The notes under the pieces were generated by a model. That model saw nothing but the letters and a program-made list of their open reading frames with translations. It was not told the origin of the DNA and searched no databases. A stretch of DNA of 64,000 nucleotides from a virus. The stretch lies in the IMG/VR virus record IMGVR_UViG_3300020274_000001, positions 76,337 to 140,336 of that record, one strand, 5' to 3'. The translations under genes and the position numbers were made by a program. How positions within the stretch are numbered: the first letter of the stretch is position 1; each line of letters opens with the position of its first letter. This document shows, piece by piece, positions 36,940 through 64,000 of this stretch.

Positions 36940-39345
36940 ATGCAGGCATCAAAGACATTCAAAGACCCAGTCGATGGCACTACTTTTGACTCCTCCTCAT
37001 ACGAAGTTAGAACCAATGGCAGTGGACGCATTTTACGAACAAGAGCACCCTCTGGTGCAATGGCTGTCGTTATGGATTCTATCTCCGACGACGACACAAA
37101 TTCATCATACGACGCATTCGCAGATGACATAACAGAAGAAGAGTTGAACAATATGGTTGAAGATTACCAAGAAAGCATGAACATTGAGACAAACCCGCCC
37201 GGAAGAATTAGCCGAGCAATCGGAACCCTTACGCAAGGAATTGGTGGAGTTGGACCAAATTCATGGCAATCTCTCCGGCTACCAAGCGTCGGGTTCGGAA
37301 AGAGAGCCGGAGTAGCATCGAAGTTAGCCGGTGTATTGGGCGGACTCGGTATTGACCGCGGAACATTCCGTAGTGGTCATGCATCCACACTAATCACTGC
37401 AAGAATGTGGACCAACTATCTAAACAACATGGATATGCAAGATGTTGCGGCAGAATTGAGCGCAGACATATCCCCAGAAGAGAAATTCTCAATTTACGAA
37501 TTCTGCAAGGAATGGGAGAGAGACCCCGGACACGTTGCATTCGTTCAACGGCTACACAACACCCCAGATGTAAACTCAATTGACGAGATTGCAAAAGGTC
37601 AGATTGTATACGACTTGATGACAGGCGGTGTAAGGCCCGGACCCGGTGGAGTCAAGGACCCATCGACCGTTAAGCACGACAAAATGTTCCGTCTTGCACT
37701 TGACATTATCAATTCAATTCGACTCACCGACTACAACTTTTACACTTTGAATGTCGTTCACCGAGATGAAGGAACCCGTCTGTATGACGACTTCATGGCA
37801 AACTATGTGCCTCTTGAACCAGACGAAGTGGAAGTAATTCACGAAGTCCGCCAAGGAATTGAGCGTCACGCCCAATCCTATGCATTCAAGTCAACAGATT
37901 CCGAAGGAGACCCTATGGGTGCGTATGATTTGATGATACGGCTTAACAACGCATACAATTCCGGAGATACCCGTCTTTGCCGGTCGATACTCGACACATT
38001 GTTTGCATACCCATACCGGTTTGTTCCTAATGTTGGCTACAAAGGATTGTTTAGCCCAACATCATCTCGGTTCATTGGACAAGAGCCACACCATCTTTAC
38101 ATCAACCAAGGGTGGAGATGGATTCTTCCTAACGAGGAAATTGGTAATACCATCTCCGACGACGGTCGTAAATTCACAGTTTCGGATGGCGCACAACTCA
38201 TTGAGGTTCTCGACTTCAACTACCCGAAACCTATTGGTGTTTTCACCAAGTTGGGTGGCGGAGGCAACAAATACTCATACATGCCGTGGACTCAATTCGA
38301 GCGCACAGGTCAAGCCGCCGCAAGCATGGTGCCACAATCTTCCAGCGACTTCGACAACCGTGTAAGAGATGCACAAGCAAGAGAAGACGGTAAAACAAAA
38401 ACACAGTCCGGTAACAAAGGTGGCGGTGGACGTGGAGGCGGCGGTAAAGGCAAACGCTTCGGGAAGCGCAACCCTCCTAAGAAGAATCCCGGTCATGCAG
38501 AAGGCAGGGACGAGTGGGCCGCCGGTATGCTCCGAAATACAAAATACGCTCGACTCGTTAACACGAATCAAATGCGCACAGCCTTGGGTCAATTGACAAG
38601 AGAAACACCGTATCTGATGTTCGGAGCAAACGGATTTTGGCCCACAAGTGACGAAGCACTACGACGAGGTTTCCAAGGTGAAGACGGAATTGTTGATGTG
38701 GCCTCCTATATCCGAGAATATGGAAATCAAGGAGAATACGCTGTTTACAACCTCAATACTGACGAATGGTTCCCCTTTGGACAGCCAGCAGTCCAGTTGA
38801 TAGAACGAAACCCAGCACCGGGACGTAAAGGAAAGAAAGATGGCACACTATCTCTCGGGCGTGGCAAGCAATACCACATCGAAATCCTACCTAAGACACA
38901 ACTGAAAGGTATGTCGAAAGGTGCTATTGGTATCGACAAGAAGACCGGAAAGGAACGGCGTAAAGGCCGAGACACATTGAAGGCTCAAGGTAAAGACACG
39001 AAAGGAGAAAGACTTGCAGGAATCACAGATGCATTCGGCTCATACCAACACGTAGCACTTGACAAAGTGACAGGTAAGACTGTTCCATTCGTAATCAAGG
39101 TCCCGTCAAAGCATTTCCGTGCAGTGAACCTTGAAGTCGAAGGTAAGACAATCCGCACATTGATGCCAATGACTAAGACATCAAAGAAGCAACAAGAAGC
39201 ATGGGCTAAGTTCCTTTCCGTGTATGGTTATCCTAAGTTAGCCAACACCAAAGGAGACCCCGTCCGTTTCAAAATCCACAAGCCAACCCGAGGTTCATTC
39301 TATCGTAGGTTGCTGAATGACAGAAAGAAGGCAAAGAAGGCGTGA
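36940..39345 (+). CDS. Large NP-motif multidomain protein
   Basis: 801 aa; GGAGG RBS; ETNPP, KRNPPKKNPG and ERNPA motifs. Confidence 0.8.
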   Translation: MQASKTFKDPVDGTTFDSSSYEVRTNGSGRILRTRAPSGAMAVVMDSISDDDTNSSYDAFADDITEEELNNMVEDYQESMNIETNPPGRISRAIGTLTQGIGGVGPNSWQSLRLPSVGFGKRAGVASKLAGVLGGLGIDRGTFRSGHASTLITARMWTNYLNNMDMQDVAAELSADISPEEKFSIYEFCKEWERDPGHVAFVQRLHNTPDVNSIDEIAKGQIVYDLMTGGVRPGPGGVKDPSTVKHDKMFRLALDIINSIRLTDYNFYTLNVVHRDEGTRLYDDFMANYVPLEPDEVEVIHEVRQGIERHAQSYAFKSTDSEGDPMGAYDLMIRLNNAYNSGDTRLCRSILDTLFAYPYRFVPNVGYKGLFSPTSSRFIGQEPHHLYINQGWRWILPNEEIGNTISDDGRKFTVSDGAQLIEVLDFNYPKPIGVFTKLGGGGNKYSYMPWTQFERTGQAAASMVPQSSSDFDNRVRDAQAREDGKTKTQSGNKGGGGRGGGGKGKRFGKRNPPKKNPGHAEGRDEWAAGMLRNTKYARLVNTNQMRTALGQLTRETPYLMFGANGFWPTSDEALRRGFQGEDGIVDVASYIREYGNQGEYAVYNLNTDEWFPFGQPAVQLIERNPAPGRKGKKDGTLSLGRGKQYHIEILPKTQLKGMSKGAIGIDKKTGKERRKGRDTLKAQGKDTKGERLAGITDAFGSYQHVALDKVTGKTVPFVIKVPSKHFRAVNLEVEGKTIRTLMPMTKTSKKQQEAWAKFLSVYGYPKLANTKGDPVRFKIHKPTRGSFYRRLLNDRKKAKKA

Positions 39346-39349
39346 TAAC

Positions 39350-39736
39350 ATGACAAACCACAAATCGTTTATGCAGACAGTAAAAGACACAACGCCACAA
39401 GACGTGCTACTAACGGGTGTGTTCGCCGGAGTAGTAGCAGGTATTAGTGGAGTAGGAAATTGGATTGATAAGAACATAACATCGTATACGATGGGATTCA
39501 AATCTAATTTATCAAGCAAGGACCTCTTCGTCCGAGGAGCATTAGTAGGGGGACTCATCTCGCTACCGTTCGCATACCTTTCAGCAACATCTGTTCTTGA
39601 CAACAATGCATTAGGTAATACTTATGTCAATCCAGTATTGAAAGGGGAACTGCCACCCGCACCGAAAGACTATGTTTACGCATCGGCAGAAGGAGAACAG
39701 CCTTACTTGATTTTAGACCCTAAATTCGGATTGTGA
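39350..39736 (+). CDS. Membrane protein (2 TM)
   Basis: Two hydrophobic segments. Confidence 0.7.
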   Translation: MTNHKSFMQTVKDTTPQDVLLTGVFAGVVAGISGVGNWIDKNITSYTMGFKSNLSSKDLFVRGALVGGLISLPFAYLSATSVLDNNALGNTYVNPVLKGELPPAPKDYVYASAEGEQPYLILDPKFGL

Positions 39737-39747
39737 GGTGATTCAAC

Positions 39748-42700
39748 ATGGTAACCGTTCCAGACTTTCTAAAGGGCGCAACAATACTTGATGCACATCA
39801 GTGGGTTGTTTCTAACCTTGACGGGCGTAACGAATATGTTCTAAAGGATATGTCGGGAATGGAAACCACCCTATCAGACCTTACAAGAGGAACGGTTACC
39901 GAGGTCAACATTACCCCAGCAGGGTCAAGAATGAATCCAGCACCATCGTATGTGTTCAAACCAGAATTCCAGCCACAAAAGCGTGTCCAACAATTCTCTT
40001 CCCGAGTAATGTTACCCGATGGAATATCTCCATCTGTTGTGCATACACTCGAAGCCAAGCACGGTGCCGCATACAGATTCATTGCTTCAAAAATGCTATC
40101 ACAACGGTCTCGTCGACAACAACTTTCTCCACGTGGAACACGGATGCTAAGTTCATTCATTATGGCAGACCCATATGCTGGTGTGCGAATTAACCCAATC
40201 GGTCTACGTCAAACGCCAAGCGGCATTAGAATGACCCGCATCGTTGGAGACAGAGGTAGGGTAATGGATGATGCAGTAGTTGCCGAAGTCAAAGGATATC
40301 TTGAAGGAAACGAATTACCGTTTGACATTGCCGCATCAGAAAGGCAGTTCAACCAATTTGTGAAAGGGGTGTTACAACCATACCTCATTTGCCTTCGTTC
40401 CAATCAAGCCCTTATTAAATACCTTAACGAGACTCTGCTACCCCATATGTTGAGATTGATTGACGCCGGAGAATTTGACGCTGACATAGGAGAAATCGGC
40501 TTCTTCCGCAAAAAATTCAAGTCAGCAGTAGAAGCAAGAACGGTATTCAAATCTGCGGCAGGAAAGGACAAAGTGAAGAAAATTCTCTCTGACCAATATG
40601 AAACAGTGATTCGCAGACTCGCTACGTCTCCACAAGACTTCTACTATGGGCGCAACGAAGCACTCGTTGCGCACCCAGCGTTCATGTTCCCTCAAGCAGC
40701 ATACTACCTGTTGCCACCTCCACGGGGCCTAACGGGCGCAACTCGAGCAGAGTTGTTCTTTTACCAAGCGGGCGAACCACCACGATATGTCGCCTCCACC
40801 CGAGATAGTCTTGGAGTTGACAAGCCCGCCATTATTCAAGAGATGCCAGAAAGAATGTTGAAAAAAATGGCTTTAGACGAGGAAGGAGACCCCATACTGC
40901 CCATTGCTCGAGTCAATAACACTCCAGTTGATTTCGGTAGAACCATGAACGTTCAGTCTGTCCAAAGGGCGTTAGCGGCAGGCAATGTCGGACAGGTCAT
41001 ACTTATGGCTTCTCAAGCGTTTTCAAATGATGGTGTTTTGAAAAGAATGTTCGGGCTGGGTGCCGCCACTCCCCCAAGTAGCCTAACAGAAAAAGAAGGA
41101 AACGCCTTGCTTGACCTCAATGAAATAGTCAAAGAGTTAAATCAAGCAGCAGACATAAACGAAGTTTTCAGAAAGAGTATATCCGATGACGCAGACAAAT
41201 ACCCTCTGTGTGCCGCTATCGAAGTTAACATCGGTGGCATTAAACCTAAGCCATTAGGTTGGCCCGAAGGATTGATATTTGCAGTAATGCAAGTCATATC
41301 AGAAAATTCTGACCAAATTATGCAAGTAGGTGCCGGGGAAACAGGGGTCAAAGATTTCTTTCAGCCTAACATTGAGGGCATAGGGCCCCTAACACTTAAA
41401 TTAACAAAACCAGCAGACCTTGACGCCAAACTCGAAAAAACAAAAGACCAAGTCAAGAAAGTGGTTGTCAATTATTTCGATAAAGGCATAATGCTTTCAG
41501 ACCTTGTTCGTGAGTCTGACAATAAAACCACAAACGATTTCAAATACGCATATGCGGCATCACTTGCTTTACACTTCGCTAATAACGGCAACGTATTGGA
41601 AGAAAACATGATAGCAAGCAGTTCCACATCGGACAAAGATGCAGAAACTAATTTCAAGAACGGAACCGTGATGGACCCACGTAAACAATTCAAGAATAGT
41701 GACAACCGACTTTCTGCATTCAACTCAATGACGCGAAACCAAGCATCTACGCCAAATAAACTCGGAATAATGAGCATACTCCAACTTGCTTTGACGAGAT
41801 TCAAGCAGGACGGAGGACAACCTACTCCAGAACAAGTTAACTTTGTAGCGCAATTGACGCTGTATTCTCTCCAGAATTTGAGCACTGAATTTGATGCTTT
41901 TGGGACAACCAATTTGGTTGACCTGTTGAAAGAAACCGTAACCGACTTACAAGGTAAGTCCGCAGAAGCAAGAGAGGCACAAATAACTAATTTGATATCG
42001 AGACTCGACGCGAGCAGAGCAACAATCCCCGACGAAAACGTCCTCCAACAAATTGTCGAAGACCGCTTGTTAGAGGATTTCTTCCAAGAACTGTTGACTA
42101 ACGACCTCGAAGATGTGTTTGATAACCCTCGCCGGAACCCACCGCTTCCAAAACTTTCTGAAATAATAGGAGAAGCCCCGAAAGATACCAATGCACTTAG
42201 GAGAGCACTCTCTGTATTGAAGAAGAAGAATCAAGAGAATGCGGCAGTATTGGGGTCAAGTCCATTCCTTCCAACAGAAGAAACAGTCAGAAAATTGGCC
42301 GACTCCATGAAAGGTATATTCCAAGCGGCTCAAGCAGAAGCAAAAGAAGCAAGAGAAGAAGCAGAAGCGGCAATCAAGCGAGATGACGAATTGACCAACT
42401 TACTTGATTCTTTCAAAGATGCTGAGGTTTCAGTAGCAAGAACGGACTCTTATCTGCAACTGATTGAAGGTATTGGAAAATCACTAAAGGCACTGTGTCG
42501 GCACGAATTGGATTTTGCAAAAGAATTCATGCTCATACCGGACAACCCTAATATGGAACTTGAGGACAATTTAGTAAGACAAGAAATGTTCAACCATCCT
42601 CTCTACATCGCACAGAAACTTCTTGGCGACCACAAGATGTTTATGGACAACATTCAGATGGTAGAAACGAGCCTAAGAGCGGGCCTGTCTTCTGCCCGGT

Positions 42701-44067
42701 TCCAATATCGAGCAGAGGAAGGGGCATGGCGACAAATGGAACGTAAACAACAAATTGAGTATCTTGTGTCTGCGATTGAGTTTTGTAATGGGTTACAAGA
42801 AGCATATGCAGAGGTAGGAGGCTCCCTTGGTATGGCAGTTGACGACATGAGAGTTGACGACAAGGACAGTATTTCTCCTCACCTATACATTGCACTTTTC
42901 GACGTAACAGACAACTTCGTATTGCGAGATAATGTTCGTCAAGCCCTTCGAGCCCTCTCGATTACTTCAATGAGATTGATAGACCCATTGACCACGAAGA
43001 TGACTTTCGATGAATTGACTAAGAAATCCTATGACCTCGTTGGAGAAATGTTCGGAGGTTTCCCCGGAGACACGTCAGCAATCAAACCCCAAAACAATCC
43101 TCTTGTTTTGGGTAAAGCATACTTGAATAAGTTGGTTGACGCAGACATTGACTTTTCTGGTTCAACCATTGGAAGAGATAGTGACAGTCAACTGCGACTC
43201 AAATTCATAGCAGAAGTAACAGGTGCAAAATATGACTTGACGAGGGCCACACGAGAGCCCCTTTCATTTGGTATTCCCGGCTCTACTACCCCTTCTTTGT
43301 TTGGATTTGAAAGAGACGAAAAGCAAGCGTCGTCATATGCACAAAGTCTTTATGACGAACAAGTTGCATTAGAGAAAAAAATACGAGGACGAGAAATAAG
43401 AGACGAGAGGGCTTTCCAACAAGCATTGGAAGAACAGACTAACAGTATAAAAGACTTCAAATTGCAAGCCCTCGAGATAGATGTTGAGGGACAAGAGAAA
43501 GACGTCAAAAAATTGAACAAAGAAATTAAAAAAATGGGTCTAAATTTCGCACGCAAAGCCGAAGAAGCAACGCGGGGCAAAAACGCCCTCGAAGAAGCGG
43601 CGAACAAAGCAATTGATGATTTGTCCAGTGACGTTGACGTCTTAACAGATGCAATCAGAGTTAAAGATAGTCGCATTAAAGATTTGGAGAAAGAAGTGGA
43701 GAGAATTGCGGCAGAAAAAGCCAAGGAAGCAGAGAAAAGAACAACCGTCCTTAGACCGATAAAAAAGAGATTCAAACCCGTCAAGGAGAACCCGAACGAG
43801 CATCCTTTCGGCACGAGATATGATATGACACATCGAGACTCCAACATTGACACTACACAAGGAACCAGTGCACTATCCGATGAGGCATTGGCACGAGGAT
43901 ACTACGCTCAACAAAAGAAGCGTATGCCTAAGAAGTCTGTAAAGATGGTAAAATGTATGCGCTGTGGTAAACCAACGTTCGAAGATTCGCTGGTCGAAAA
44001 CTCATTCTGCCAAAAGTGTGCAGATGCTCTCGCCAGAACCAATCCGGTGGTGAGATGGAGTGTCTGA
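39748..44067 (+). CDS. Very large helical NP-motif protein
   Basis: 1439 aa; GAGGTGA RBS; coiled coils, C-terminal C4 Zn finger, several NP motifs. Confidence 0.8.
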   Translation: MVTVPDFLKGATILDAHQWVVSNLDGRNEYVLKDMSGMETTLSDLTRGTVTEVNITPAGSRMNPAPSYVFKPEFQPQKRVQQFSSRVMLPDGISPSVVHTLEAKHGAAYRFIASKMLSQRSRRQQLSPRGTRMLSSFIMADPYAGVRINPIGLRQTPSGIRMTRIVGDRGRVMDDAVVAEVKGYLEGNELPFDIAASERQFNQFVKGVLQPYLICLRSNQALIKYLNETLLPHMLRLIDAGEFDADIGEIGFFRKKFKSAVEARTVFKSAAGKDKVKKILSDQYETVIRRLATSPQDFYYGRNEALVAHPAFMFPQAAYYLLPPPRGLTGATRAELFFYQAGEPPRYVASTRDSLGVDKPAIIQEMPERMLKKMALDEEGDPILPIARVNNTPVDFGRTMNVQSVQRALAAGNVGQVILMASQAFSNDGVLKRMFGLGAATPPSSLTEKEGNALLDLNEIVKELNQAADINEVFRKSISDDADKYPLCAAIEVNIGGIKPKPLGWPEGLIFAVMQVISENSDQIMQVGAGETGVKDFFQPNIEGIGPLTLKLTKPADLDAKLEKTKDQVKKVVVNYFDKGIMLSDLVRESDNKTTNDFKYAYAASLALHFANNGNVLEENMIASSSTSDKDAETNFKNGTVMDPRKQFKNSDNRLSAFNSMTRNQASTPNKLGIMSILQLALTRFKQDGGQPTPEQVNFVAQLTLYSLQNLSTEFDAFGTTNLVDLLKETVTDLQGKSAEAREAQITNLISRLDASRATIPDENVLQQIVEDRLLEDFFQELLTNDLEDVFDNPRRNPPLPKLSEIIGEAPKDTNALRRALSVLKKKNQENAAVLGSSPFLPTEETVRKLADSMKGIFQAAQAEAKEAREEAEAAIKRDDELTNLLDSFKDAEVSVARTDSYLQLIEGIGKSLKALCRHELDFAKEFMLIPDNPNMELEDNLVRQEMFNHPLYIAQKLLGDHKMFMDNIQMVETSLRAGLSSARFQYRAEEGAWRQMERKQQIEYLVSAIEFCNGLQEAYAEVGGSLGMAVDDMRVDDKDSISPHLYIALFDVTDNFVLRDNVRQALRALSITSMRLIDPLTTKMTFDELTKKSYDLVGEMFGGFPGDTSAIKPQNNPLVLGKAYLNKLVDADIDFSGSTIGRDSDSQLRLKFIAEVTGAKYDLTRATREPLSFGIPGSTTPSLFGFERDEKQASSYAQSLYDEQVALEKKIRGREIRDERAFQQALEEQTNSIKDFKLQALEIDVEGQEKDVKKLNKEIKKMGLNFARKAEEATRGKNALEEAANKAIDDLSSDVDVLTDAIRVKDSRIKDLEKEVERIAAEKAKEAEKRTTVLRPIKKRFKPVKENPNEHPFGTRYDMTHRDSNIDTTQGTSALSDEALARGYYAQQKKRMPKKSVKMVKCMRCGKPTFEDSLVENSFCQKCADALARTNPVVRWSV

Positions 44068-46864: not shown

Positions 46865-46873
46865 GGTGATAAC

Positions 46874-47182
46874 ATGGCACACGACGCAGCACTCGGACTA
46901 TCGCACAAGACATGGGTGCGCATAGATGCTCTTGCGGCAACAGGGCTTGCACTATCACTTACTCGAGAATTGATGGAAAAGAGAGGCAAAAATGTAAACC
47001 TCGGTCTATCTCGTAAATCATGGAGCCGTCTTGAGTATGGTTCACTTGTTTTCGCATTACTATTCGCATTCAGAAACATCTACGAAGCAGTCGACGAATA
47101 TGAAGGCACATACGGAGTCGGTTCTTTCTTGAACCCGAACGCTGTCGTCGCAACAGGCCCGAGGAGATATAACGAGTTTTGA
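46874..47182 (+). CDS. Small membrane protein
   Basis: AGGTGA RBS; hydrophobic helices; internal repeat LGLSHKTW / LGLSRKSW. Confidence 0.7.
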   Translation: MAHDAALGLSHKTWVRIDALAATGLALSLTRELMEKRGKNVNLGLSRKSWSRLEYGSLVFALLFAFRNIYEAVDEYEGTYGVGSFLNPNAVVATGPRRYNEF

Positions 47183-47194
47183 GGAGGTGACACC

Positions 47195-47743: not shown

Positions 47744-47748
47744 GGGCG

Positions 47749-53600: not shown

Positions 53601-55025
53601 GTCGTATTTCACACACATCCGAGAGACACGTTCAAGCCACCCATGTTCCCAATTATTTCGGGACACGACCTCGCTTCTTCTCTAACATCCAAATATTTCA
53701 TGGGTGTTCCTTGGGAAATGATTGTCGTGCCTCATGGCTTCGTATTCTTCCGACCTAAAGCACTAAGGAAAGGCTCGAAGGTTTTGAAATCAGTAGAGGC
53801 TTTGAAAAAGTCTCCTTCACAGAAGCAGGCAGACAAAACAAGTAATGACTTACACACAGAAAGTAAGAAAGTCATCAAATCTTACACGAAGGCCCGTAAG
53901 AAAGTGTTGAAGGATGCCGCAAAATTGACAAGAGAAAAAGGGTTCATTTCTGAACACCCGTCTTGGACAGAGGATGCTATTGTCGACCAGATGAACATTG
54001 ACACGGAGAGCGATGTGTTGTTCGAGTATGTGTTTGTCCCACTTTATGTCCTTGGGCCCAACTTCCGTAAGAAGAAGTGGCAGACAATCAAGAGTAATCC
54101 GTCCACCGGATACTTTGGTGTTAGTAAAAAGCGACCTACGTTTGAAGCAGGGGTAATTGGTCCAGATGGGGAACCAATGTCCCCATCTATTTCGCTCGAC
54201 AAGGAATTCGCTGATGCATTAGCAAGAGGAAGAAGGGCAGACCCAAAAGAAAAAGGATACAAGTTATACAAAGGATACAACACCAATCAAGGTGAAGGGT
54301 ATGCGTTTGTCCTCGGTCTACCAATCAACATGCAAATGGATTTCACAGACATGTATGGTGGCCCCGGAGCAACAGGTATTGCCATGTTAAGTTCAGATGA
54401 AGGCAACATTCGTGCTACCACTGAACAATTCAATTACGCATATAGAGCGCACGACCCAGAGCAAAGCAAGAACGATTTGAAAGTGATTTATGCGGCTTCG
54501 ATGGAGATGCCACGCAAGGAAGACCCCGAAATGAGAACACCCGCCCCTACACTATACGATACAGGTAAGATGAAGGGCAGTATTGCCAAAGAAATGGAAA
54601 GTGCGCTTAAGGGGGCGAAGTTCACAGGGTCTCAAGCAGAAAAGTTAGCCCACCTGCGTGTCCTAAAACAAGACCTTGGGACATTAACGAATCCACCAAC
54701 CGACATCGAAGAGTGGGATAATAGAATCACACTATACTCACAACGATACCAAGAATTCCATGCCGCCCCTACTCACCAAACGTGGATGGACCATGCTTCC
54801 TCTGAATTCCCAATGTGGGAAATTCCACTCCTTGAGAAAGGAAGGCTTCTGATGGAAGCAATTGAAAATTACACACTTACCGATGAGGAGGTTGCCCGTG
54901 TTCGGCAGGAATACTCATCTATGAGCCTTGACCTCGCTAATCCATTGGGGAACTTGCTGACAGGGCTGGACTCCGAAGAAGATGAAGACTTCGAAGAGGG
55001 TGAGGAAGATGACGAGACTGAATGA
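50658..55025 (+). CDS. AEP primase-polymerase / ATP-dependent DNA ligase / JAB-like fusion protein
   Basis: ADIDFH and YSGHGYH (AEP); TPKFNG, VGEL, EGLVIH, FKVK, PRVVVEVEY and RELRPDK (ligase); FHTHP..ISGHD (JAB/MPN-like). Confidence 0.85.
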   Translation: MRDFSLYLVEFNKFIQLIVGSGRIPDESDVDLFIDKMWTKPYWAYDENNFSDASTFKGVQAFDMATGEKVLDIESYGFADYVADVKPMLMEKLEGSVGEVGESAVRAWDPMPIPLARLAERNANKDGFKGWKDLDNVKKRNSEYWIRADAEISYIKSRLLEYNRKVVPYQLKKTMYHTLTSIQYSSSNGKCFVGHMGRPTIHSEEEIEAFMHEHVETGSHRSLWFTISNTGEKYKAGVADIDFHDIDVTERQKKRVVKEVARRLRAAGYPILIQYSGHGYHVWFGQGSGPSFDDRHAMNNLIRRALGNVPGAVFKSKSSKAESIAENLAIIELEQRTPAMWAMFFGLHYKPHSKGATLEDDGMWATPGSGLVRVPLSLDQLDAFDPFRDAHPEHVLANFDRMAILVDNFFDEVEIGYGHEEEGQTEAHPPCFRSEGVEPEHPLALATTQWKKKPDFTQLRWEEALEMFSDKENYSVTPKFNGSLFGIHYKEQGGHKVGGTVLTSERTIVSRGSGATTLKTPVTTIMASKGGLILWENHVTREFEDACRKKGVSEALFVGELFQHDEFGIVRGPQAITSVVMRNEIDPKAFKQLRYALIDAISIDNNPANAGYKVRHGELLPFEGDKVKIIPLEHIPNASGPRLEALWSLHVKENQQEGLVIHHEGKRFKVKRRHTIDVVIISVSTESKPWKDKKKNRHVFEVAVAKKTKYGDPTYVYIGSVGWGPGWDNQKQSELFDMVMGEQVSEGKWEHTINVPIVPPEDPTYFVSQGRHFVTPRVVVEVEYERLSEGRSASFGTYFYQATKRAQRGRKKAKSGYRVYPQVLASRRMIGPAVIRELRPDKDPESTFDLRVEQADGAGGLNIGRAPRKNPMTVSGYPAWMQGLANLLPIIPSTGSEVDRALIVDSSLSKMKFYNSPQGFPREEPWLMPIEAYRKLWNLSKRSGRSKEYGGYIKDGTIFYGSSHHRGSIDMWLTNDVYAADVVFHTHPRDTFKPPMFPIISGHDLASSLTSKYFMGVPWEMIVVPHGFVFFRPKALRKGSKVLKSVEALKKSPSQKQADKTSNDLHTESKKVIKSYTKARKKVLKDAAKLTREKGFISEHPSWTEDAIVDQMNIDTESDVLFEYVFVPLYVLGPNFRKKKWQTIKSNPSTGYFGVSKKRPTFEAGVIGPDGEPMSPSISLDKEFADALARGRRADPKEKGYKLYKGYNTNQGEGYAFVLGLPINMQMDFTDMYGGPGATGIAMLSSDEGNIRATTEQFNYAYRAHDPEQSKNDLKVIYAASMEMPRKEDPEMRTPAPTLYDTGKMKGSIAKEMESALKGAKFTGSQAEKLAHLRVLKQDLGTLTNPPTDIEEWDNRITLYSQRYQEFHAAPTHQTWMDHASSEFPMWEIPLLEKGRLLMEAIENYTLTDEEVARVRQEYSSMSLDLANPLGNLLTGLDSEEDEDFEEGEEDDETE

Positions 55026-58000
55026 ATACGTCATCTCTCACGCATACGGTCTGCCCCAAGAGCAAGACGTAATTGGTCAGTCAACCGTTGCCGCTTCTGG
55101 CTTCGATGTAGAGAAAGGAAAGTGGTTTGTCATTCTCAATGGAACCGTGCAAAAGCAAGATATCGCTAAGTCGGTAAAAAGCGTCATTGGTAAGTCAAAA
55201 TACTTCTCCACCCAAGGTAGAGTATACGAAGTAACTACTGATTCAAAATACAATACGGAGGTCGTAAAGTCAAATCCTCCCGGTCAAGTTCAAACCGTAG
55301 TAAGTGGTGGCGTTACTTCTCAACGTGTTCGCAAGAATCCTGTTAGTGTGTCAGATTTCCGTTCAGAAATGCATGGTATGCTTGTCAGCGACCCACGTCG
55401 AGACTTCAAGGTAATTGATGCACCCACTCCATTCGGGGGAGAATCTTTCCGAGATGTTCTGTATTCATTCGTATCATATCGAGGAGAGTCATATGGATGG
55501 ACAAAAGGCAACAAAATTTACCATCGTCGTGGGTCACTTATTATGCCCAAACTGAAAGTGAACAGGGCAGTAGAAGGAGCAAAGATGTTTTATCATACGC
55601 ACCCTTCGAAAGATGAGCCATCGCTATCAAGTGCTGATGATTACCAATTCTACTTCGACCTTGCTTTTGCCTTTGGTATCAAACATTTCTATACGATAAT
55701 GGAGAACCGTCTTGACCATTTCGAAATCACAGTCAAGAAATCAAAGGAAGAAGATTACCTCAAGATGGATGAAGACAAGGTTCTCGACGACATAAACAGT
55801 ATCATCGATGCTTCTGAAGCAGAAATCACCAAGAAGCACAAGTCAGACAAGAATCTGCCAGATGAGAAATTTTACGCTAAAATGACGAAGGATACCGTGA
55901 CACGACTCAACAGAAGGTTCGGGGATTTTGCCACAATCAAATACAAGGGTCACGCTAACCCCAAGATTGTCCGTGAAAACCCGAGTGATGCCGGATTTCG
56001 CCACAATCCACCTATCAGAATATCACACATCCACAAAGCATCACAACTCGAAGAATTACGAGACACAACCAACAACTTCGAACACTACGGGGCTAACGAA
56101 TACGGACATTCACAATACGTCTACTGGTGGGTCGACCATCACTTCTCAAACACCAACATCCACCCACAAGGAAGACTCTACAAGTTGAAAGAGTTAGGAC
56201 TCGACGACGATAACCGACGACTTCTAAGAGCATACATGGAAGAAGAAATAGCACCGGGTTATTCTAAACTTGATATTCTTTTGCTATTGGCTCTCTATCA
56301 TGACGTGGGCAAGAAAAGAGAGAAAGAACAAGGGATTCATCATTCAATTATCGCTTCGAACATGTTCCAAGATGAAATCGGCCCCGAACTGAACCTTCCA
56401 AAAGAAGTCTCGGATGTATGTGCACTATTGATGCTAACCGACTGCGGGAGGAAAAATACCACTCCCGAAGCATTCAAGTCTCAAGCCGGAGATTTCCTTG
56501 GAGTAGCATACGCATTACAGATTGCCGATATGATTGCTCACCATCCATTCATGTTCACATCATTGGCTTCTGAAGCCAAGCAAGAAGGTCGTCTCGACAA
56601 GGCTAATGTAGAACAATACAAGGTAATGGTCGCTAAAGAATTATTCAGCAAGATAGCAGACTTCTTGCAGACAAGAGTCAAGACAAACCCACCTCCTGTT
56701 GCCAAGTCAATCATCTACGCTGGTTCATACGATTCTCCAATTGATGGGGACATAGCCGAACAATATCTTGAGGCCAAGAAGAAGCACAACGGTCAACTGT
56801 TCATACCGATAGAAGAATCAGATGCTACTGTTACCTTGGGACTTTCAAGCGGCTCGTTCAGAACTACAATGTCTCGAGCGAAAGGTCACTTCACGGAAGA
56901 AGACCCATTCGGAGCAGACCTTGCAGTTTCCCTTTACGAACAAGTAGGTCGTGTATTATCAGACTTCACCCCCGGCCTTTCGTTCGCAGAAGCACCAGAA
57001 CCAGCAGTAATGGTCAACCCAAGACATGCTAAGAAGATACACGTAGTTACCGTAGCGGGTCCAACAATGACAGGTAAGCAGGCCGTTATCGAAGAAGTCG
57101 CACGTATGACGGGTGGCGTAGTTATTCCAACAGTGACTACACGACCAAAGCGCAAGCACGAAGCCAAGTCTACCGACAGGATATTCGTATCAGAATCTAA
57201 GTTCAAAGAAATGATTGAACAGGGCGAATTCGTAGAATGGAACAAGGCAAAGAATGGATACATGTTTGGTCGTAGGTTTTCTGACTTCACAAAGTCGGTA
57301 GCCGTCGTGGATGTTAACCTCCGTAATGTATCGAAATATCAAGACGCATTCCCAAATACTACTTCTGTGTTCCTTGACCCCGACATGACGCCCGCTAAAC
57401 TCACAACCAAAATACGGTCAGAGGTTGCCGTCTCGAAGGAACAGGCGGCAACAAAGGTAAAACAAATCATGAAGCAAGTCGCAAATGCTCAACACATTCC
57501 ATTTGATATGGTCATCAAATCTCAAGGTGACAAACCTCACGCAACAGCGAAACACATTTCAGACGACATCGAAAGGCAGAACCCTCCAGAGTTGCTACCA
57601 GTATACGGTTGCCCCGTGTGTGATGTAAAAGCGATGACTCATACTAATTGGTATTGTAAAGAGCACGGAGAAGTTGAAGCAAACCCAAAATCCCGAGAAG
57701 AATGGTTCATGGATTGGGCTAAACTCATCAACATGAAGAACAAGGAACTCGAAGCATTCCTCAATTCACCGCTTGGAAAGAAAGCAGGGTTATCTGCTTC
57801 CGAGGCCAAGGAGCAAGGAATCAACTCTGGCCGAGTAAGCGGGAGAGCCATCTTGCGGATGAGGAAGAAGATTGGTCTTGGTGGTCCAAAGGATTACGTC
57901 AAAGGACCAACGCATGCAAGTGCACTGTTTATCTTAGCACAGAAAAAGTGGAATGACCTCGATTGGGAATGGTGTTCTCGACAAGTAAGATTCAACAAGC

Positions 58001-61000
58001 GATTCATGGGAGATTGGATGGGCAAGCGCAAAGGTCCACTTGTCCGAAAAGGACAACCTACACGCAGACTACTTGCACTATGGGTATGGGGATTCGACCC
58101 ATGGCGATACGCCCGCAAAGTCGAGAAGCGTAAAACCATGCCGAAGTGTCCAAAGGTCCCATGGATTGGTAGAACCGAGAAGCGCATGTATGGAGTTCAA
58201 TCCGATGAAGTAAAGATGAACCCACCGTCAAAATCAATTCGATTGGCAGACTTAATTTCTCGATTAGATATGAAGGCTCTAATAAGGAATATGACTGCCA
58301 GAATGGAAGGAAAGCGGGGGCTTCCGGGTCATTGGAGCAAAACATCGGGAATTACACTGGAGGAAAAACACAAACGAAACAAGAAAATATATGCCAAATT
58401 CCTCAAAGACCAATATGGCTACACAGGCAATTCTCCGATTAACGCTTTAGAGGCAGTGTTTGCCTCGCAGTTAAAAAAGTTCAAGAAAGACAAATTGACA
58501 ATATATCGAGCAATCATTACAGTCAATGACCCAGAAGCATTGTCAGAAACATGGAACAAATATGGTGTGTTCGAATCATGGGGAACCAAGAAACACAACG
58601 CTGACATTTACTCTGCTGGAGGTAATGTCGTTAAACTCATGAACGCTGGTAACCAAGCACTTATCGAAGGAGAGATATATTTCGGAGACGTCGATTGGAC
58701 GCAAACCATTGAAAATAACATTCATTTTGGCAAATCTGAAGACGAAATAAACCCGGACCCACACACTACCGTTTTTGTCAATAAGGTTTCCTTCTACAAA
58801 TTGGACGATAAAGCCCGCAAGAAATATGCTGACGCCGTGACCGGAATTGGTTTCAATTGGAAGCCATGGATTGACCCATCGTTTAAGCCCGTCAATGTAT
58901 GGGAACCAAAAGAGCACTTTCCGGTTTATGGCCCCAATTACAACGACCTATACGGCCCAGCAAAGGCAAACCCACAAGACAAACTACCATGGCTCCCAGA
59001 ACCAGAAGTAGACCCTGCAACAATCGAGCCTCACCTTGATTGGCCACAATTCACTAAACCATCGTGGTTACCGCAGAGCATGATTCCTAAGACTGCGGTG
59101 TTGTCTCCTCGCCGAGTAATAAATTTCCAAGGACAACGAAGAGTAAAGCCGGCGTTCTATTACATTCCACCAGCAGACCTCAACGCTTTAATCAACTCAC
59201 AGAAGTATCTTGAGTTACAAGAAGCAGACCGACAACGCAAGATAGCCGAAGCCGAAGCACTCAAGAAACAATTACAAGAGCAGGGCCAAACATTCCTCGG
59301 CGATTGGAAGGAGAATCCTCCGCATATATTCAAGAAAGGAGACATAATTTACTACAACAACGACACTCCGAAGAAATGGCAAGGTAGAAAGGGTAGAGAG
59401 ACTCTCATCGAGAAATATGACTCTTTCAGAGTTTGGGAAGTAAAGGGAGTAAATGAAATGCCCAATTTGCCGCCAGCGTATCAATTAATGCCAATAAAAT
59501 CATTCAATGTAAAGACGAAAATCACATTGGGTCAGAAATTTGTTGAGGCTAATTTCATCAAAGAACCCGACATGGGCGGTTCGATGTTGCCAGATTATCT
59601 GGTGAACCCGTCTAACATTCCGTTCCCGATTCCCGAGGAATACCAAGAGGAACTTGAACGTCGTCTTACCGAAGAGATGACCTCCGAAGGATACAAGCCA
59701 CACACAATCCCCGAAGTTATCGAGGAAGGACTGTATGATGACTCTCCGTCAGACTTTGCATATGCGCAAGGAGAGTATGAAGAATTCCTCGAAGAAATAG
59801 AGAAAGGAGACTTTGACGAGGCGTATGCAGAATACAGTGACGTAGAGGGACATGTCGCTTATTGGCTGTGGACCAATCACCGCATCCAAGTCCCAATCTA
59901 TACAGGGACTCACGTAGATAAGACCCGAGTAAGAATACAGATATTCAATCATCTATTCAACCAATACGGCTTGAAATTCGGACCTAAGTATCTCAAGGGT
60001 GGTTCCAATTATGAGAAGGTCCACAAAGTGCGTAAGGCTCTCGATGCCGCCGCAGACGACCAAGGTAAGCCACGCAGTAAAGATACGGACGAAGAGATGG
60101 CCAAGAAGGTGGCAACATCAGTAGCGGCGATAGTAAAGAAAAATCCACCAACTGTAATAGCAACGGGTGCTCCACACAAGATAGCAGAATATGAGAAGCA
60201 TCTGGGAGATGGATATTCCTTCAACGACACGTATGACCTCCCCGAAGTCGAAGCAGGGCCGAAAACGGTAGCAATACACAAAGCCAAACTCGCTTACGAG
60301 GTGATGGGTGGGCCCGTTCTTGTAGAGGACACTACTTTACACATTCGAGGGATGTCATCAAAAGACGCATCGAAAATCAAGTTCCTTGTCAAGAATCTCG
60401 ACAAACACATAGGTAAGCGTGCCATCGAACGGGTATACATTGGCTATTGTGATGGAGAAAAGGTGTATCTGTATCTCGGTCAAACCAAAGGAACACTACT
60501 GTCCCCTCGTGGTGACAAAGGATTTGGATATGACCTATACTTCTCACCAGATGGCTCCGATAAGACCTACGCAGAAGAAAAGTTCGTTTCAAGTAGAACG
60601 AAGGCAATAAAGAAAATGCTTTCAGACAAGCCAGACTATGTTGGTCCTATGCCTGCTGATTGGAAAGGCGAATGGCAAGCAGGATATAGTCCAGCAGACG
60701 GAATCAATGAAAACCCGCCTAACTCTCTTGAAGAAGACTTTGAGTGGATGATTGACAACGCTTACGAGAACCTTACCAAGAAGATACAAGGAGAAGACTC
60801 AGACTACAATGGTCAACTGTGGTGGAATGAACAGAAGCCTTGGATTAGAGAGAAGTATGGAATGTCTCCGGTCGAAGGCGCAAGATGGTTAACTCCGATT
60901 TACGAAGAAGACTTCGACCCAGATAGCACCGAAGGTGAATTTACCGAGACAGATGACGCAACACCCCTGCACTTCTTGAACCAACTCAAGCGAATACCAT

Positions 61001-61608
61001 TGCAACGAGAACCGAATGCACTTAGAATACTACAAGTCGCTCTGAACATAGGTCAAGGACTTGCAACAGACGCTATCGAAGAAAGGTATTCCATCGAAGA
61101 CTTCGTTGCTTATGACAATCCCCGGACACCCAAAGGCAAGAAGTTTCCATCTAAGTATCTCAAAGGACTCAACTCTCTGGAGAAGATGATTGCCGAAGAT
61201 GAGATAGACAAGGGATACAAGTATGATGCTGACGACCCCAAGGCATACGAATTTTGGAAGTCTGACATCAAAGCCACTGCTCGGGGACTAAAGATTGGCA
61301 CATCTAAGCACCGTGTCAAATATTACAAGAAGTATAGGAAGAACATCGACAAGGACTACAAGCCAGCCGGTAACAGCCCTAAGCAGAAATTCCTCAACCG
61401 TATTCGTAAGGAAACCAAAATCAAGAAGTCAATACTTGAGAAGATATACGACAAAGGGTTAGCCGCTTGGAGAGTAGGACATAGACCGGGTGTAGCACAG
61501 CACCAATGGGCGGCAGGTAGAGTGTATGCTTTCGCAGTCGGTGCAGACTCTTCCACAGGCAAAGGTAAGCCAGACCACAAGTTAGCCGTCGAAGCGGGTG
61601 TGAGATGA
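55009..61608 (+). CDS. About 2200-aa NP-delimited multidomain protein: JAB-like, HD, guanylate-kinase-like, DUF3140-like, MazG-like, ITPase (Ham1), DUF5824-like
   Basis: YHTHPS..SSADD; LYHDVGK; AGPTMTGK..TTRPKR; WAKLINM..SGRAIL; EFLEE..EYSDV; ATGAPHK..VEDTTL..GFGYD; KGLAAWRVGHRPG..QWAAGRVYAF. Confidence 0.85.
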   Translation: MTRLNEYVISHAYGLPQEQDVIGQSTVAASGFDVEKGKWFVILNGTVQKQDIAKSVKSVIGKSKYFSTQGRVYEVTTDSKYNTEVVKSNPPGQVQTVVSGGVTSQRVRKNPVSVSDFRSEMHGMLVSDPRRDFKVIDAPTPFGGESFRDVLYSFVSYRGESYGWTKGNKIYHRRGSLIMPKLKVNRAVEGAKMFYHTHPSKDEPSLSSADDYQFYFDLAFAFGIKHFYTIMENRLDHFEITVKKSKEEDYLKMDEDKVLDDINSIIDASEAEITKKHKSDKNLPDEKFYAKMTKDTVTRLNRRFGDFATIKYKGHANPKIVRENPSDAGFRHNPPIRISHIHKASQLEELRDTTNNFEHYGANEYGHSQYVYWWVDHHFSNTNIHPQGRLYKLKELGLDDDNRRLLRAYMEEEIAPGYSKLDILLLLALYHDVGKKREKEQGIHHSIIASNMFQDEIGPELNLPKEVSDVCALLMLTDCGRKNTTPEAFKSQAGDFLGVAYALQIADMIAHHPFMFTSLASEAKQEGRLDKANVEQYKVMVAKELFSKIADFLQTRVKTNPPPVAKSIIYAGSYDSPIDGDIAEQYLEAKKKHNGQLFIPIEESDATVTLGLSSGSFRTTMSRAKGHFTEEDPFGADLAVSLYEQVGRVLSDFTPGLSFAEAPEPAVMVNPRHAKKIHVVTVAGPTMTGKQAVIEEVARMTGGVVIPTVTTRPKRKHEAKSTDRIFVSESKFKEMIEQGEFVEWNKAKNGYMFGRRFSDFTKSVAVVDVNLRNVSKYQDAFPNTTSVFLDPDMTPAKLTTKIRSEVAVSKEQAATKVKQIMKQVANAQHIPFDMVIKSQGDKPHATAKHISDDIERQNPPELLPVYGCPVCDVKAMTHTNWYCKEHGEVEANPKSREEWFMDWAKLINMKNKELEAFLNSPLGKKAGLSASEAKEQGINSGRVSGRAILRMRKKIGLGGPKDYVKGPTHASALFILAQKKWNDLDWEWCSRQVRFNKRFMGDWMGKRKGPLVRKGQPTRRLLALWVWGFDPWRYARKVEKRKTMPKCPKVPWIGRTEKRMYGVQSDEVKMNPPSKSIRLADLISRLDMKALIRNMTARMEGKRGLPGHWSKTSGITLEEKHKRNKKIYAKFLKDQYGYTGNSPINALEAVFASQLKKFKKDKLTIYRAIITVNDPEALSETWNKYGVFESWGTKKHNADIYSAGGNVVKLMNAGNQALIEGEIYFGDVDWTQTIENNIHFGKSEDEINPDPHTTVFVNKVSFYKLDDKARKKYADAVTGIGFNWKPWIDPSFKPVNVWEPKEHFPVYGPNYNDLYGPAKANPQDKLPWLPEPEVDPATIEPHLDWPQFTKPSWLPQSMIPKTAVLSPRRVINFQGQRRVKPAFYYIPPADLNALINSQKYLELQEADRQRKIAEAEALKKQLQEQGQTFLGDWKENPPHIFKKGDIIYYNNDTPKKWQGRKGRETLIEKYDSFRVWEVKGVNEMPNLPPAYQLMPIKSFNVKTKITLGQKFVEANFIKEPDMGGSMLPDYLVNPSNIPFPIPEEYQEELERRLTEEMTSEGYKPHTIPEVIEEGLYDDSPSDFAYAQGEYEEFLEEIEKGDFDEAYAEYSDVEGHVAYWLWTNHRIQVPIYTGTHVDKTRVRIQIFNHLFNQYGLKFGPKYLKGGSNYEKVHKVRKALDAAADDQGKPRSKDTDEEMAKKVATSVAAIVKKNPPTVIATGAPHKIAEYEKHLGDGYSFNDTYDLPEVEAGPKTVAIHKAKLAYEVMGGPVLVEDTTLHIRGMSSKDASKIKFLVKNLDKHIGKRAIERVYIGYCDGEKVYLYLGQTKGTLLSPRGDKGFGYDLYFSPDGSDKTYAEEKFVSSRTKAIKKMLSDKPDYVGPMPADWKGEWQAGYSPADGINENPPNSLEEDFEWMIDNAYENLTKKIQGEDSDYNGQLWWNEQKPWIREKYGMSPVEGARWLTPIYEEDFDPDSTEGEFTETDDATPLHFLNQLKRIPLQREPNALRILQVALNIGQGLATDAIEERYSIEDFVAYDNPRTPKGKKFPSKYLKGLNSLEKMIAEDEIDKGYKYDADDPKAYEFWKSDIKATARGLKIGTSKHRVKYYKKYRKNIDKDYKPAGNSPKQKFLNRIRKETKIKKSILEKIYDKGLAAWRVGHRPGVAQHQWAAGRVYAFAVGADSSTGKGKPDHKLAVEAGVR

Positions 61609-62788: not shown

Positions 62789-62790
62789 AC

Positions 62791-63375
62791 ATGTTACTCG
62801 TCACAGTCCCCCACGCTAAACGAGAGGCGTCCGGAGACCATGATGAGGGCTCCATCCGCATGATACCCCACCTAAAGAGGGCACTTGACAACGAAGGTGT
62901 CGATTACGAAATACTCGTAGGTGATACTTACCGAAGCATCATCGACCTCAACCGAGGAGAGGCGAGAAACACCGAGTTCGCTAAAGATATGCGACGATTG
63001 CTAAAAAAGAGCAGGTATCACATTGATTTACACTCATTCCCCGACGTTTCACAAGATGCGTCAGAAGAAGAGTCGATAACTGCGATGGGAGATGACATTC
63101 GTAATTGGGCACTGTCCGATGTGGTGTTCCTAACAATACCAGACATTACCGACCCCGTATTCTTAGAAGAAATGAAAATGGGTTTGGAAGAAACAGTAAT
63201 TGTAGACGATATCCAAACCGACGATTACAATTTCATCACGGTCTTTTCGCAGGTTGCGATGGATGTCCCATCCATCCTCCTTGAATTGAATGAGGGTTCT
63301 GTCCAAGCATACCCTGCTGTTGCGGCGGAGATTGCCCGGGTTGTTGGACGTTTGCTTGGTTCTGTTGTCGCATGA
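62791..63375 (+). CDS. N-formylglutamate amidohydrolase-like zinc hydrolase
   Basis: VTVPHA, IDLNR, HIDLHSF and LLELNE motifs. Confidence 0.6.
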   Translation: MLLVTVPHAKREASGDHDEGSIRMIPHLKRALDNEGVDYEILVGDTYRSIIDLNRGEARNTEFAKDMRRLLKKSRYHIDLHSFPDVSQDASEEESITAMGDDIRNWALSDVVFLTIPDITDPVFLEEMKMGLEETVIVDDIQTDDYNFITVFSQVAMDVPSILLELNEGSVQAYPAVAAEIARVVGRLLGSVVA

Positions 63376-63499
63376 ATTGTGTGATAATGATATTTACTCC
63401 AGCCGACCGAGAAGGCCACCATCTCATTCGTATTCCGTATTCAATATAGTCGAATACATCTTTGTCTAAAGTGATGGAGATTTTCTCCTTTGCCGCCAT
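63236..63499 (-). CDS. Ribbon-helix-helix (CopG-like) regulator with Gln-rich tail
   Basis: KEKISITLDKDVFDYI...SRSAGVNIII. Confidence 0.65.
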   Translation of the reverse strand: MAAKEKISITLDKDVFDYIEYGIRMRWWPSRSAGVNIIITQFMRQQNQANVQQPGQSPPQQQGMLGQNPHSIQGGWMGHPSQPAKRP

Positions 63500-63665
63500 C
63501 TCTCTTTGTGGATGACGTGGTCCTGCCATGTATGTCCGATGTTAAGGGTAGACTTGACTGTTCCTATCATTTCGTCTCGATTTATAGGTATCCTACTCTA
63601 TCCTACTTTATCGCACCACCATTAATATGCGTATTCGGTTTCGGGTAGGAATAAGGGCGATTGTT

Positions 63666-64000
63666 ATGGCACTAAATGAAGTTATTATCGTAAACCCATC
63701 CGGCAAGCGAAAAAAGACTACACGGCGTCGAAAATCCCCTAACAGGAGTGCGAAAAATATGGCTCGAAGAAAAACGACAAGAAGCAAGACAGTGCGGCGG
63801 CGGAAATCCCCTGCACGTAGAAAATCAACGACCCGGCGACGGAAATCACCGGCACGACGCAAGTCAACCACACGGCGGCGGAAATCCACCACACGGCGGC
63901 GCAAGTCACCAAAGCGGCGGTCCACAACTCGCCGGCGGAAATCCACCACACGGCGGCGCAAGTCACCAAAGCGGCGGACCACACGGCGGCGGAAGACAAC
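63666..64000 (+). CDS. Protamine-like Arg/Lys/Ser/Thr-rich protein, truncated by the window edge (candidate genome-condensing core protein)
   Basis: MALNEVIIVNPSGKRKKTTRRRKSP followed by repeated RRRKSTT / RRRKSP; not in the ORF track because it has no stop in the window. Confidence 0.8.
   Translation, partial: MALNEVIIVNPSGKRKKTTRRRKSPNRSAKNMARRKTTRSKTVRRRKSPARRKSTTRRRKSPARRKSTTRRRKSTTRRRKSPKRRSTTRRRKSTTRRRKSPKRRTTRRRKT

Follow-up and report, generated by a model that had tools for sequence, protein, structure and literature searches.

We analysed a window of 64,000 nucleotides, the last 64 kb (positions 76,337 to 140,336) of IMG/VR virus record IMGVR_UViG_3300020274_000001, a single contig of 140,336 bp whose ends share a 55-bp overlap, so that the assembly closes as a circle. 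From position 36940 onward six contiguous plus-strand open reading frames (ORFs) of 801, 1439, 934, 978, 1455 and 2208 amino acids (aa) fill 24.7 kb, and downstream of them lie genes for a small candidate zinc protease, a P-loop ATPase and a protamine-like protein (Table 1). The giant proteins carry a recurrent Asn-Pro (NP) dipeptide with preferred neighbours, which in several of them falls at seams between unrelated domains. A preliminary description of the window, made from its letters, had proposed that this motif is a maturation cleavage site or a capsid-loading tag and that unrelated enzymes have been captured between its copies as modular cargo.

Enrichment of the motif was counted on a greedy whole-genome ORF set, in which the block comprises 12 ORFs from 36940 (8,829 aa) and the rest of the genome 134 ORFs (31,493 aa). 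The block holds 53 NPs where 21.3 are expected from composition, and the ORFs outside it hold 85 against 66.5, so the enrichment anticipated in the preliminary description is borne out. In 1000 within-protein shuffles, used as the null for all motif counts, the block averaged 21.5 NPs and none of the shuffles reached 53. The excess was sharper for longer forms, with 27 copies of [RK]xNP against 2.9, 12 of NPP, the commonest form (12/53), against 1.1, and 16 of [VIP][RK]xNP against 0.5 (1 against 1.3 in the remaining genome); outside the block the longer patterns were at expectation. The form [RKE]xNP accounts for 33 of the 53 block NPs. Counted from the Asn, the preferred residues are V/I/P at -3 and R/K at -2, with P/S/A next to the Pro on its far side, while the control dipeptides PN, DP, NG, QP and SP showed no enrichment in the block (z -2.2 to 1.6). 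All 15 motifs previously quoted for the 2208-aa protein were found, and its 17 NPs also include HANPK at 326 and EINPD at 1257. Tandem NPs were considered as redundant sites and rejected, the five close pairs being not significant against the ~3 expected by a hand estimate from the NP listing.

The mild NP excess in the rest of the genome would be compatible with chance or composition, or with a signal at the nucleotide level, for instance a word tied to RNA processing or restriction. Codons at the seams are however mixed (AAC 18 and AAT 15 for Asn; CCA 16, CCG 9, CCT 6 and CCC 2 for Pro), and since they vary, selection acts on the protein. The DNA word AAYCC occurs 53 times in frame against 11 and 14 times in the other two frames, which together with the codon mix rules out a nucleotide-level signal. 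Taken with the shuffles and with the retention of the motif across homologues of 27-60% identity, this leaves an origin by chance or composition with a negligible probability.

The modules of the 2208-aa protein follow one another as an N-terminal beta-rich module, a JAB/MPN+ module, an HD-like module, an unassigned module, guanylate kinase, a 34-aa Cys-rich mini-module and a DUF3140-like module, after which come five modules lacking a Pfam match, Ham1/ITPase, one more without a match and DUF5824. Pfam placed guanylate kinase at residues 689-847 (after NP679), DUF3140 at 911-963 (after NP901), Ham1/ITPase at 1725-1880 (after NP1721) and DUF5824 at 2056-2189 (after NP2046), while in the 934-aa protein the HAD domain follows NP32 and the NUDIX domain NP547. 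Once projected to profile position 1, five of the seven Pfam domains begin 1-8 residues past an NP; a weak HD match (422) has no adjoining NP. The starts agree with the positions just past an NP that had been claimed for these enzymes, and the JAB-like domain of the ORF at 50658-55025, for which the same had been proposed, lies between NP870 and NP1147.

Residues 1-1100 of the 2208-aa protein were modelled with AlphaFold on a 26-sequence alignment. The model had a mean predicted local distance difference test (pLDDT) value of 72.9, with 183 of the 1100 residues below 50. Eight of the ten NPs modelled are among these residues (119, 333, 342, 569, 679, 867, 901 and 1080). The low-confidence stretches that hold them are 117-119, 332-351, 569-573, 678-681, 866-902 and 1056-1100, the last of which may also owe its low confidence to the truncated end of the model, and a few other stretches are of similarly low confidence. 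NP326 lies at the end of a predicted strand. Pfam starts and predicted linkers thus agree on an overlap of NPs with domain boundaries. Foldseek searches with the 1100-residue model returned, among the matches listed, guanylate kinases and one MAGUK-type entry with a kinase-like domain, and are uninformative on the other modules.

Two short modules of the 2208-aa protein have features of their own. Residues 867-901 (57580-57690) form a 34-residue mini-module between two seams with a CPVC...C..H arrangement, a possible zinc knuckle, found in about a quarter of homologues. Residues 1-118 (54982-55335), upstream of the JAB module, are predicted to form a strand-strand-helix-strand-strand-strand succession (34-116) that recalls a ubiquitin-like beta-grasp; were this domain ubiquitin-like, its pairing with a JAB module might mirror that of ubiquitin with JAMM enzymes.

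Conservation and module exchange in relatives point to the same boundaries. A word-seeded search yielded 93 homologues of 1354-3733 aa with varying architectures, to which precomputed Pfam matches add glutaredoxin, NUDIX, GNAT, SET, PAP2, ABC ATPase and DNA ligase; an IMG/VR peptide-pattern search for close relatives of the 2208-aa protein returned none. The homologues contain 1460 NPs where 454 are expected, with flanking preferences as in the block (V/P/A, R/L/K, any residue, N, P and then P/R/S), the residue after NP being P in 24%, R in 12% and S in 11%. At 13 of the 17 NPs of the 2208-aa protein both residues reach 86-100% conservation, where columns average 49% identity. The 26-sequence alignment shows no variation at N119, P120, N679, P680 and N901; the weakly conserved NPs are 326, 342 and 1257. 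Homologue coverage of the 2208-aa query steps at NPs, with 86, 27, 87 and 18 over residues 679-867, 867-901, 901-1080 and 1080-1257. Among 267 internal starts of BLASTP high-scoring segment pairs (HSPs), 77 fall exactly at the Asn and 170 within -5..+15 of it (random mean 40, maximum 62, 500 trials), and among 214 HSP ends 44 fall at the Pro and 141 within -15..+5 (random mean 32); kinship among the homologues inflates these counts, and unique end-points give the same pattern.

Individual modules also occur with and without their seams. A terminal DUF5824 module closes the protein with ...AGVR (41 of 108 proteins), whereas an internal one is followed by K-N-P-P or K-D/E-N-P-P. The natural end of this one module family, represented by many HSPs, therefore falls 0-3 residues short of the Asn. 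The distant relative P0200 has a module between NPs 357 and 491 that matches a protein present in 597 or more IMG/VR stretches. Of 79 loci examined, 57 encode this protein as a separate ORF of about 140-195 aa, and in the two loci where it lies in giant ORFs it is again bracketed by NPs. The free-standing protein is Cys-rich, of about 145 aa, and 65-80% identical to the seam-bounded module (IMG/VR loci L018-L096). The preliminary idea of unrelated enzymes as modular cargo therefore stands as far as their joining at a conserved NP motif and their swapping there in relatives; that the products are carried in the virion, the alternative being that they act inside the infected cell, has somewhat less than an even chance, its evidence being the position of the genes beside the ATPase and the basic core protein.

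For the other block proteins, upstream DNA of two related records was used for comparison. Nearly all of the 6-7 homologues aligned to the 1455-aa protein (25-67% identity) retain NP870, NP1147 and NP1345, and none of eight retains NP606. Residues 1-870, which contain no conserved NP, had no match in PDB by phmmer, and a six-sequence profile of them matched archaeal ATP-dependent DNA ligases at E 3.5e-4 to 0.013. The strongly acidic tail of this protein, with runs of Asp and Glu (54939-55025), is shared with homologues (L004, L005) and could pair with the very basic protamine-like protein. In relatives of the 934-aa protein the middle modules are swapped; NP32, 756 and 819 persist there, NP11 and 751 do not, and NP227, which has a seam-like score, aligned to no relative. 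NP85 (801-aa protein) and NP63 (1439-aa protein) are retained by the single relative compared. The 93 homologues also served to train a position matrix, whose scores for the 2208-aa protein itself are circular; it gave values of at least 2 for 13 of the 33 NPs in the five other block proteins against 4 of 79 elsewhere in the genome. Good-scoring seams are few in the 801-, 1439- and 978-aa proteins, which also contain long seam-free stretches; Pfam at E<=1 gave nothing usable for the 801- and 978-aa proteins. All three resemble large proteins trimmed at their ends more than they do strings of modules, so the string-of-modules picture fits mainly the 2208-, 934- and 1455-aa proteins. The earlier statement that NPs mark the domain boundaries of the large proteins is thus retained mainly for these, and not every NP is a seam, as NP606 illustrates.

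Table 1. Features of the block and protease candidates in the window (coordinates of the window)
Feature	Coordinates	Strand	Remarks
801-aa protein	36940..39345	+	no Pfam family; NP85; NP511/516 pair in Gly/Lys-rich tract
1439-aa protein	39748..44067	+	no Pfam family; few seams: NP63, 793/797 pair, 1348, 1432
934-aa polyprotein (putative)	44060..46864	+	HAD phosphatase 49-197, NUDIX 556-672; seams NP32, NP756, NP819
978-aa protein	47725..50661	+	no Pfam family; good-scoring NPs only near ends (73, 966)
1455-aa protein	50658..55025	+	ligase-like 1-870, seam NP870, JAB paralogue 870-1147, seams NP1147 and NP1345, acidic tail
2208-aa polyprotein (putative)	54982..61608	+	17 NPs, about 14 of them conserved seams
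JAB/MPN+ module, residues 119-328 of 2208-aa protein	55336..55965	+	flanked by N119-P120 and the 326/333/342 NP cluster
Metzincin-like zinc protease candidate, 155 aa	61605..62072	+	HEYGHILGHDH, Met-Asn downstream, hydrophobic C-terminal tail
P-loop ATPase, 242 aa	62060..62788	+	AAA_22, HerA/FtsK-like matches; candidate genome-packaging ATPase
Protamine-like protein	63666..64000	+	10-residue leader ending VNP, then RRRKSP/RRRKSTT repeats
Transglutaminase-like (papain-fold) Cys protease candidate, 266 aa	28409..29209	+	Cys and His motifs conserved in G001, G003
Retropepsin-like aspartyl protease, 112 aa	20839..21177	-	PF13975, 38.5 bits vs cut-off 28.2
MCM helicase	17453..19858	-	

Our proposed explanation is that the giant proteins of 36940-61608 would be polyproteins, with whole small enzymes and structural pieces arranged head to tail, and that the linker motif (a hydrophobic residue or Pro, then Arg/Lys/Leu, any residue, Asn, Pro and often a further Pro or Ser) would serve as the recognition and cutting site of a virus-encoded protease. 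A cut at or beside the Asn-Pro would leave the recognition residues upstream and a near-native N-terminus downstream. The biased upstream residues lie on the preceding C-terminus and the next module begins right after the NP, as might be expected of a protease site read on its non-prime side. The same site would remove the 10-residue leader from the protamine-like, DNA-condensing protein. We give this reading, in which NP marks processing sites of polyproteins, a little better than an even chance.

Alternatively the motif may be an uncut linker or docking tag: a conserved spacer by which adjacent domains stay independent, or a short linear motif to which a packaging or assembly factor binds. 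The proteins would then act at full length, as many polyvalent phage proteins do. The position in linkers and the conservation fit this too, and N4 vRNAP, ArdC and TraC1 travel unprocessed according to Iyer et al. (2017, PMC5512222). A spacer, however, would not need two invariant residues and three biased upstream positions. It would also have nothing to join at the basic protein, where a 10-residue leader and NP cannot be an inter-domain spacer, nor at the 6- and 11-residue tails past the last NP of the 1439- and 978-aa proteins. A docking tag, as distinct from a spacer, is compatible with these points and we leave it standing. The presence of four candidate proteases in one genome counts against proteins that are never cut, and we regard the uncut alternative as the main rival, though a rather unlikely one.

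FlhB (N|PTH), reovirus-type coat proteins and RsgI, where the pair lies in a turn between two strands, are cut between Asn and Pro, and cutting of this bond has been described only as self-cleavage in folded domains (PMC3207474, PMC10328401). The seams could accordingly be envisaged to cleave themselves by asparagine cyclisation with no protease, the Asn side chain attacking its own carbonyl and releasing a Pro-initiated product. Both residues are near-invariant at the seams, and one NP alone, at residue 98 of the 2208-aa protein, resembles the RsgI site in being placed at a turn that joins two predicted strands. Known asparagine lyases, which likewise include viral structural proteins (reovirus mu1/VP5) beside FlhB/YscU and RsgI, nevertheless cut in cis, at one site per folded domain, with that domain supplying an acidic residue (PMC3207474). 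Here the dipeptide recurs in linkers with recognition-like residues upstream, and eight of the ten modelled NPs fall in low-confidence linkers between unrelated folds. NPTH itself occurs at none of the 53 block NPs, and together these counts make the analogy to FlhB-family proteins drawn in the preliminary description a poor fit and self-cleavage improbable.

Co-translational separation of the 2A StopGo type (D-V/I-E-x-N-P-G|P), here on archaeal ribosomes, shares a superficial likeness, V-[K/R]-x-N-P against V-E-x-N-P-G-P. Separation by 2A needs G-P, but none of the 53 block NPs is followed by G-P, only two read NPG and the residue after the Pro varies, so that we consider it extremely improbable. 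The motif counts in the block thus rule out both 2A-like StopGo and FlhB-type NPTH sites.

The virus itself encodes candidate proteases for the seams. Two of its modules are JAB paralogues lying between seams, one in the 2208-aa protein (residues 119-328) and one in the 1455-aa protein (870-1147). Their JAMM motif, E...HxH...S..D, consists of module residues E51, H87, H89, S99 and D102 (E169, H205, H207, S217 and D220 of the 2208-aa protein), invariant in 9 and in 30 sequences. A model of the first module had a pLDDT of 90.1. Foldseek gave no hit for it at E<=0.001, its best rows (E 0.035-0.8) including CSN5, Pyrococcus JAMM1, BRCC36 and AMSH, while VIA-align gave Z 5.5-6.8, against a caution mark of 8, with nearly all of the top 50 rows being MPN proteins including Rpn11, JAMM1, Cap3 and RadC. 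Pfam Prok-JAB matched one of nine JAB members (E 0.0022), a PDB profile search with the JAB modules found nothing relevant, and tblastn of the JAB module against GenBank phages gave no match. The modules carry the JAMM motif and likely adopt the MPN fold.

Across 38 sequences of the metzincin-like protein the motif HExxHxxGxxH is invariant at H84, E85, H88, G91 and H94, and M101 and N102, at the position of a downstream Met-turn, reach 90% conservation or more. The protein, for which there are 49 small homologues, lies between the polyprotein and the ATPase in eight of eight related IMG/VR loci; its profile found the same 8 contigs in IMG/VR and no further ones. It matched the Pfam families M10, M48 and Reprolysin_5 at E 0.0025-0.0054, below their cut-offs, and in a PDB profile search weakly matched stromelysin-3 (E 0.0022) and fragilysin, MMPs and archaemetzincin (E 0.02-0.7). 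Most relatives have two NPs just past the zinc site (H-T-H-P-L-N-P-N-I-M-N-P), and the 49 homologues contain 50 NPs where 18.4 are expected; the window copy has none. These NPs look like part of the active-site region and not like seams. The retropepsin-like gene adjoins the MCM operon.

To see which protease travels with the seams we searched a full library of 1.84 billion proteins with a JAB-module profile, obtaining 90 representatives of which 77 were new relative to the earlier homologue set. The new representatives contain 487 NPs against 165.7 expected. All 60 of those of at least 250 aa exceed the NP expectation and 59 of the 60 have the extended motif. A third JAB subtype sits C-terminally in otherwise different giant proteins with seams of the form [I/P/L][K/R]xNP[P/S]. 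One JAB protein led to G001, a complete record of 128,784 bp with direct terminal repeats, in which a 2151-aa protein has 19 NPs against 5.5 expected. G001 contains the JAB module (E 2.5e-22), which is present in every other record tested (G002-G004), and the Cys protease (E 1.3e-28), also present in G003; the Cys and His motifs of the latter align across G000, G001 and G003. The metzincin profile had no match in G001 at E<=1 and is present in G003-G008, and the retropepsin had no match in G001 and is present in G004. The virus does encode a retropepsin-like protein (PF13975), which speaks for the retropepsins invoked in the preliminary description as able to cut before Pro, but the idea is weakened by the NP seams of G001, a complete genome with no retropepsin match.

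Every member of the narrow JAB family lies in an NP-rich protein, and this is the part of the link between JAB and NP that is independent of how the records were found. Co-occurrence is what ties each of the four candidates to the seam. Should cleavage take place, the JAB/MPN+ modules would be the first choice for the enzyme, at clearly less than an even chance; the transglutaminase-like Cys protease and a host or other enzyme would each be unlikely, the metzincin a little more so and the retropepsin the least likely. In its most specific form, the narrow JAB/MPN+ family inside the polyproteins would read a five-residue code ending in Asn-Pro and cut there, V-R-x-N mimicking the L-R-G-G of ubiquitin, a version that we hold to be doubtful.

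A number of points weigh against processing or against the enzymes named. The case for it has been built throughout from sequence, with no product, neo-terminus or spanning peptide seen, a fact that also favours the uncut alternative. X-Pro bonds are poor substrates for most endopeptidases, and characterised JAB enzymes cut after the Gly-Gly of ubiquitin-like proteins, whereas the seams are not Gly-Gly sites. The link between JAB and NP is partly circular because G001 and G002 were reached via the JAB search, and records other than G000 and G001 are fragments, 33-79% complete, so that protease absences there say little. NP98 sits in the turn of a predicted beta-hairpin within a folded domain and so outside any linker. 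Gene starts in relatives are off the seams: the NP closest to the start of one split gene is 48 residues away, and further N-termini align to positions 9-13 residues past an NP. NPs within the first 40 residues occur in 16 of 140 proteins, no more than the seam density predicts, and short N-terminal leaders in homologues were accordingly rejected as support. RadC-type JABs, finally, may act on nucleic acids, according to Iyer et al. (2017, PMC5512222).

The protamine-like ORF runs across the circular junction and encodes 365 aa from an upstream ATG at 63627. Long RRRKSP/RRRKSTT repeats are followed by a hydrophobic Gly-rich C-terminal part, which may sit in the membrane. The previously reported IVNPS is present. 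In each of the five relatives read the leader consists of M-A-L-x-E, three hydrophobic residues and V-N-P, followed by the basic tract, and such an arrangement fits a removable or docking leader. A joint model of the JAB module, zinc and the first 45 residues of the protamine-like protein scored 0.02 against a mark of 0.32; run as it was without controls, it gives no verdict. The internal proteins of phage T4 are basic, DNA-associated and have a capsid-targeting leader of ~10 residues, removed by the head protease after Glu. The likeness lies in a leader of ~10 residues on a basic protein, but the protamine-like protein has Val-Asn-Pro at the end of its leader, the removal of which is what we propose.

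That polyproteins are processed at a fixed motif is textbook knowledge for viruses with RNA genomes and for a handful of large DNA viruses of eukaryotes. The core polyproteins pp220 and pp62 of African swine fever virus are cut at Gly-Gly-X, and adenovirus precursors include the basic pVII. Shared with these, on the proposed reading, are a dsDNA virus, large late polyproteins with a recurring junction motif, a protease of the virus's own and a basic protein with a removable leader; the differences are Asn-Pro in place of Gly-Gly, other protease families, enzyme modules, a prokaryotic host and a system known from sequence. Closer in content are the polyvalent proteins, which are virus-encoded, combine many unrelated enzymatic domains per polypeptide in variable architectures, include RadC-type JAB domains and have been proposed to be processed by peptidase domains (Iyer et al. 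2017, PMC5512222). The window has several unrelated domains per polypeptide as well (guanylate kinase, Ham1, DUF5824, DUF3140, HD, HAD and NUDIX), but the polyvalent signature domains MuF, zincin-like MPTase and ART had no Pfam match at E<=0.01 in the six giant proteins, many modules of which match nothing, so that divergent versions may be among them. The text of PMC5512222 names no junction motif and proposes a zincin-like MPTase as the processor; in it 'linker' and 'Asn-Pro' occur 0 times, 'cleavage site' only in a reference and 'Archaeal' once. An Asn-Pro junction code in archaeal or bacterial viruses was described in none of the papers returned by literature searches, although the supplementary alignments of PMC5512222 might hold junction information. 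The giant proteins can be grouped with the known viral polyproteins and polyvalent proteins, while the code at their junctions is one that we found described nowhere.

That an enzyme can cut right after Asn-Pro is feasible, as illustrated by PPEP-1 of Clostridioides difficile, a zinc metalloprotease that cuts VNP|PVP and whose best site has Asn-Pro followed by Pro (PMC10413326). PPEPs, unlike what is found here, need Pro at P1' and prefer Pro at P3' (XXPPXP), and their substrates are bacterial surface adhesins. Only 12 of the 53 block NPs are NPP, as are 24% of those in homologues, and most seams have no Pro-x-Pro downstream. No PPEP homologue turned up, none having been searched for.

Were the seams cut, a widespread group of ocean viruses would have giant hypothetical proteins that can be read as ordered lists of small enzymes, with a simple rule for splitting giant proteins for annotation and structure prediction, and a protease of unusual specificity would act at or beside an Asn-Pro bond. 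Modules of the block are mostly nucleotide-handling (guanylate kinase, ITPase, NUDIX, HAD, HD and ligase), a hint at a reshaping of host nucleotide pools. Were the JAB modules the enzyme, prokaryotic dsDNA viruses would possess a plug-and-play polyprotein system in which a captured gene becomes releasable once flanked by seams, and JAMM enzymes would gain a new substrate class and specificity.

Elsewhere in the window, phage family libraries matched almost no known families among the encoded proteins, which include two archaeo-eukaryotic primase-like proteins in addition to the MCM helicase. The 1439- and 934-aa ORFs overlap by 8 nt. Around this overlap (43950-44160) Cys-x-x-Cys pairs of zinc-ribbon-like appearance lie at the end of the former and the start of the latter.

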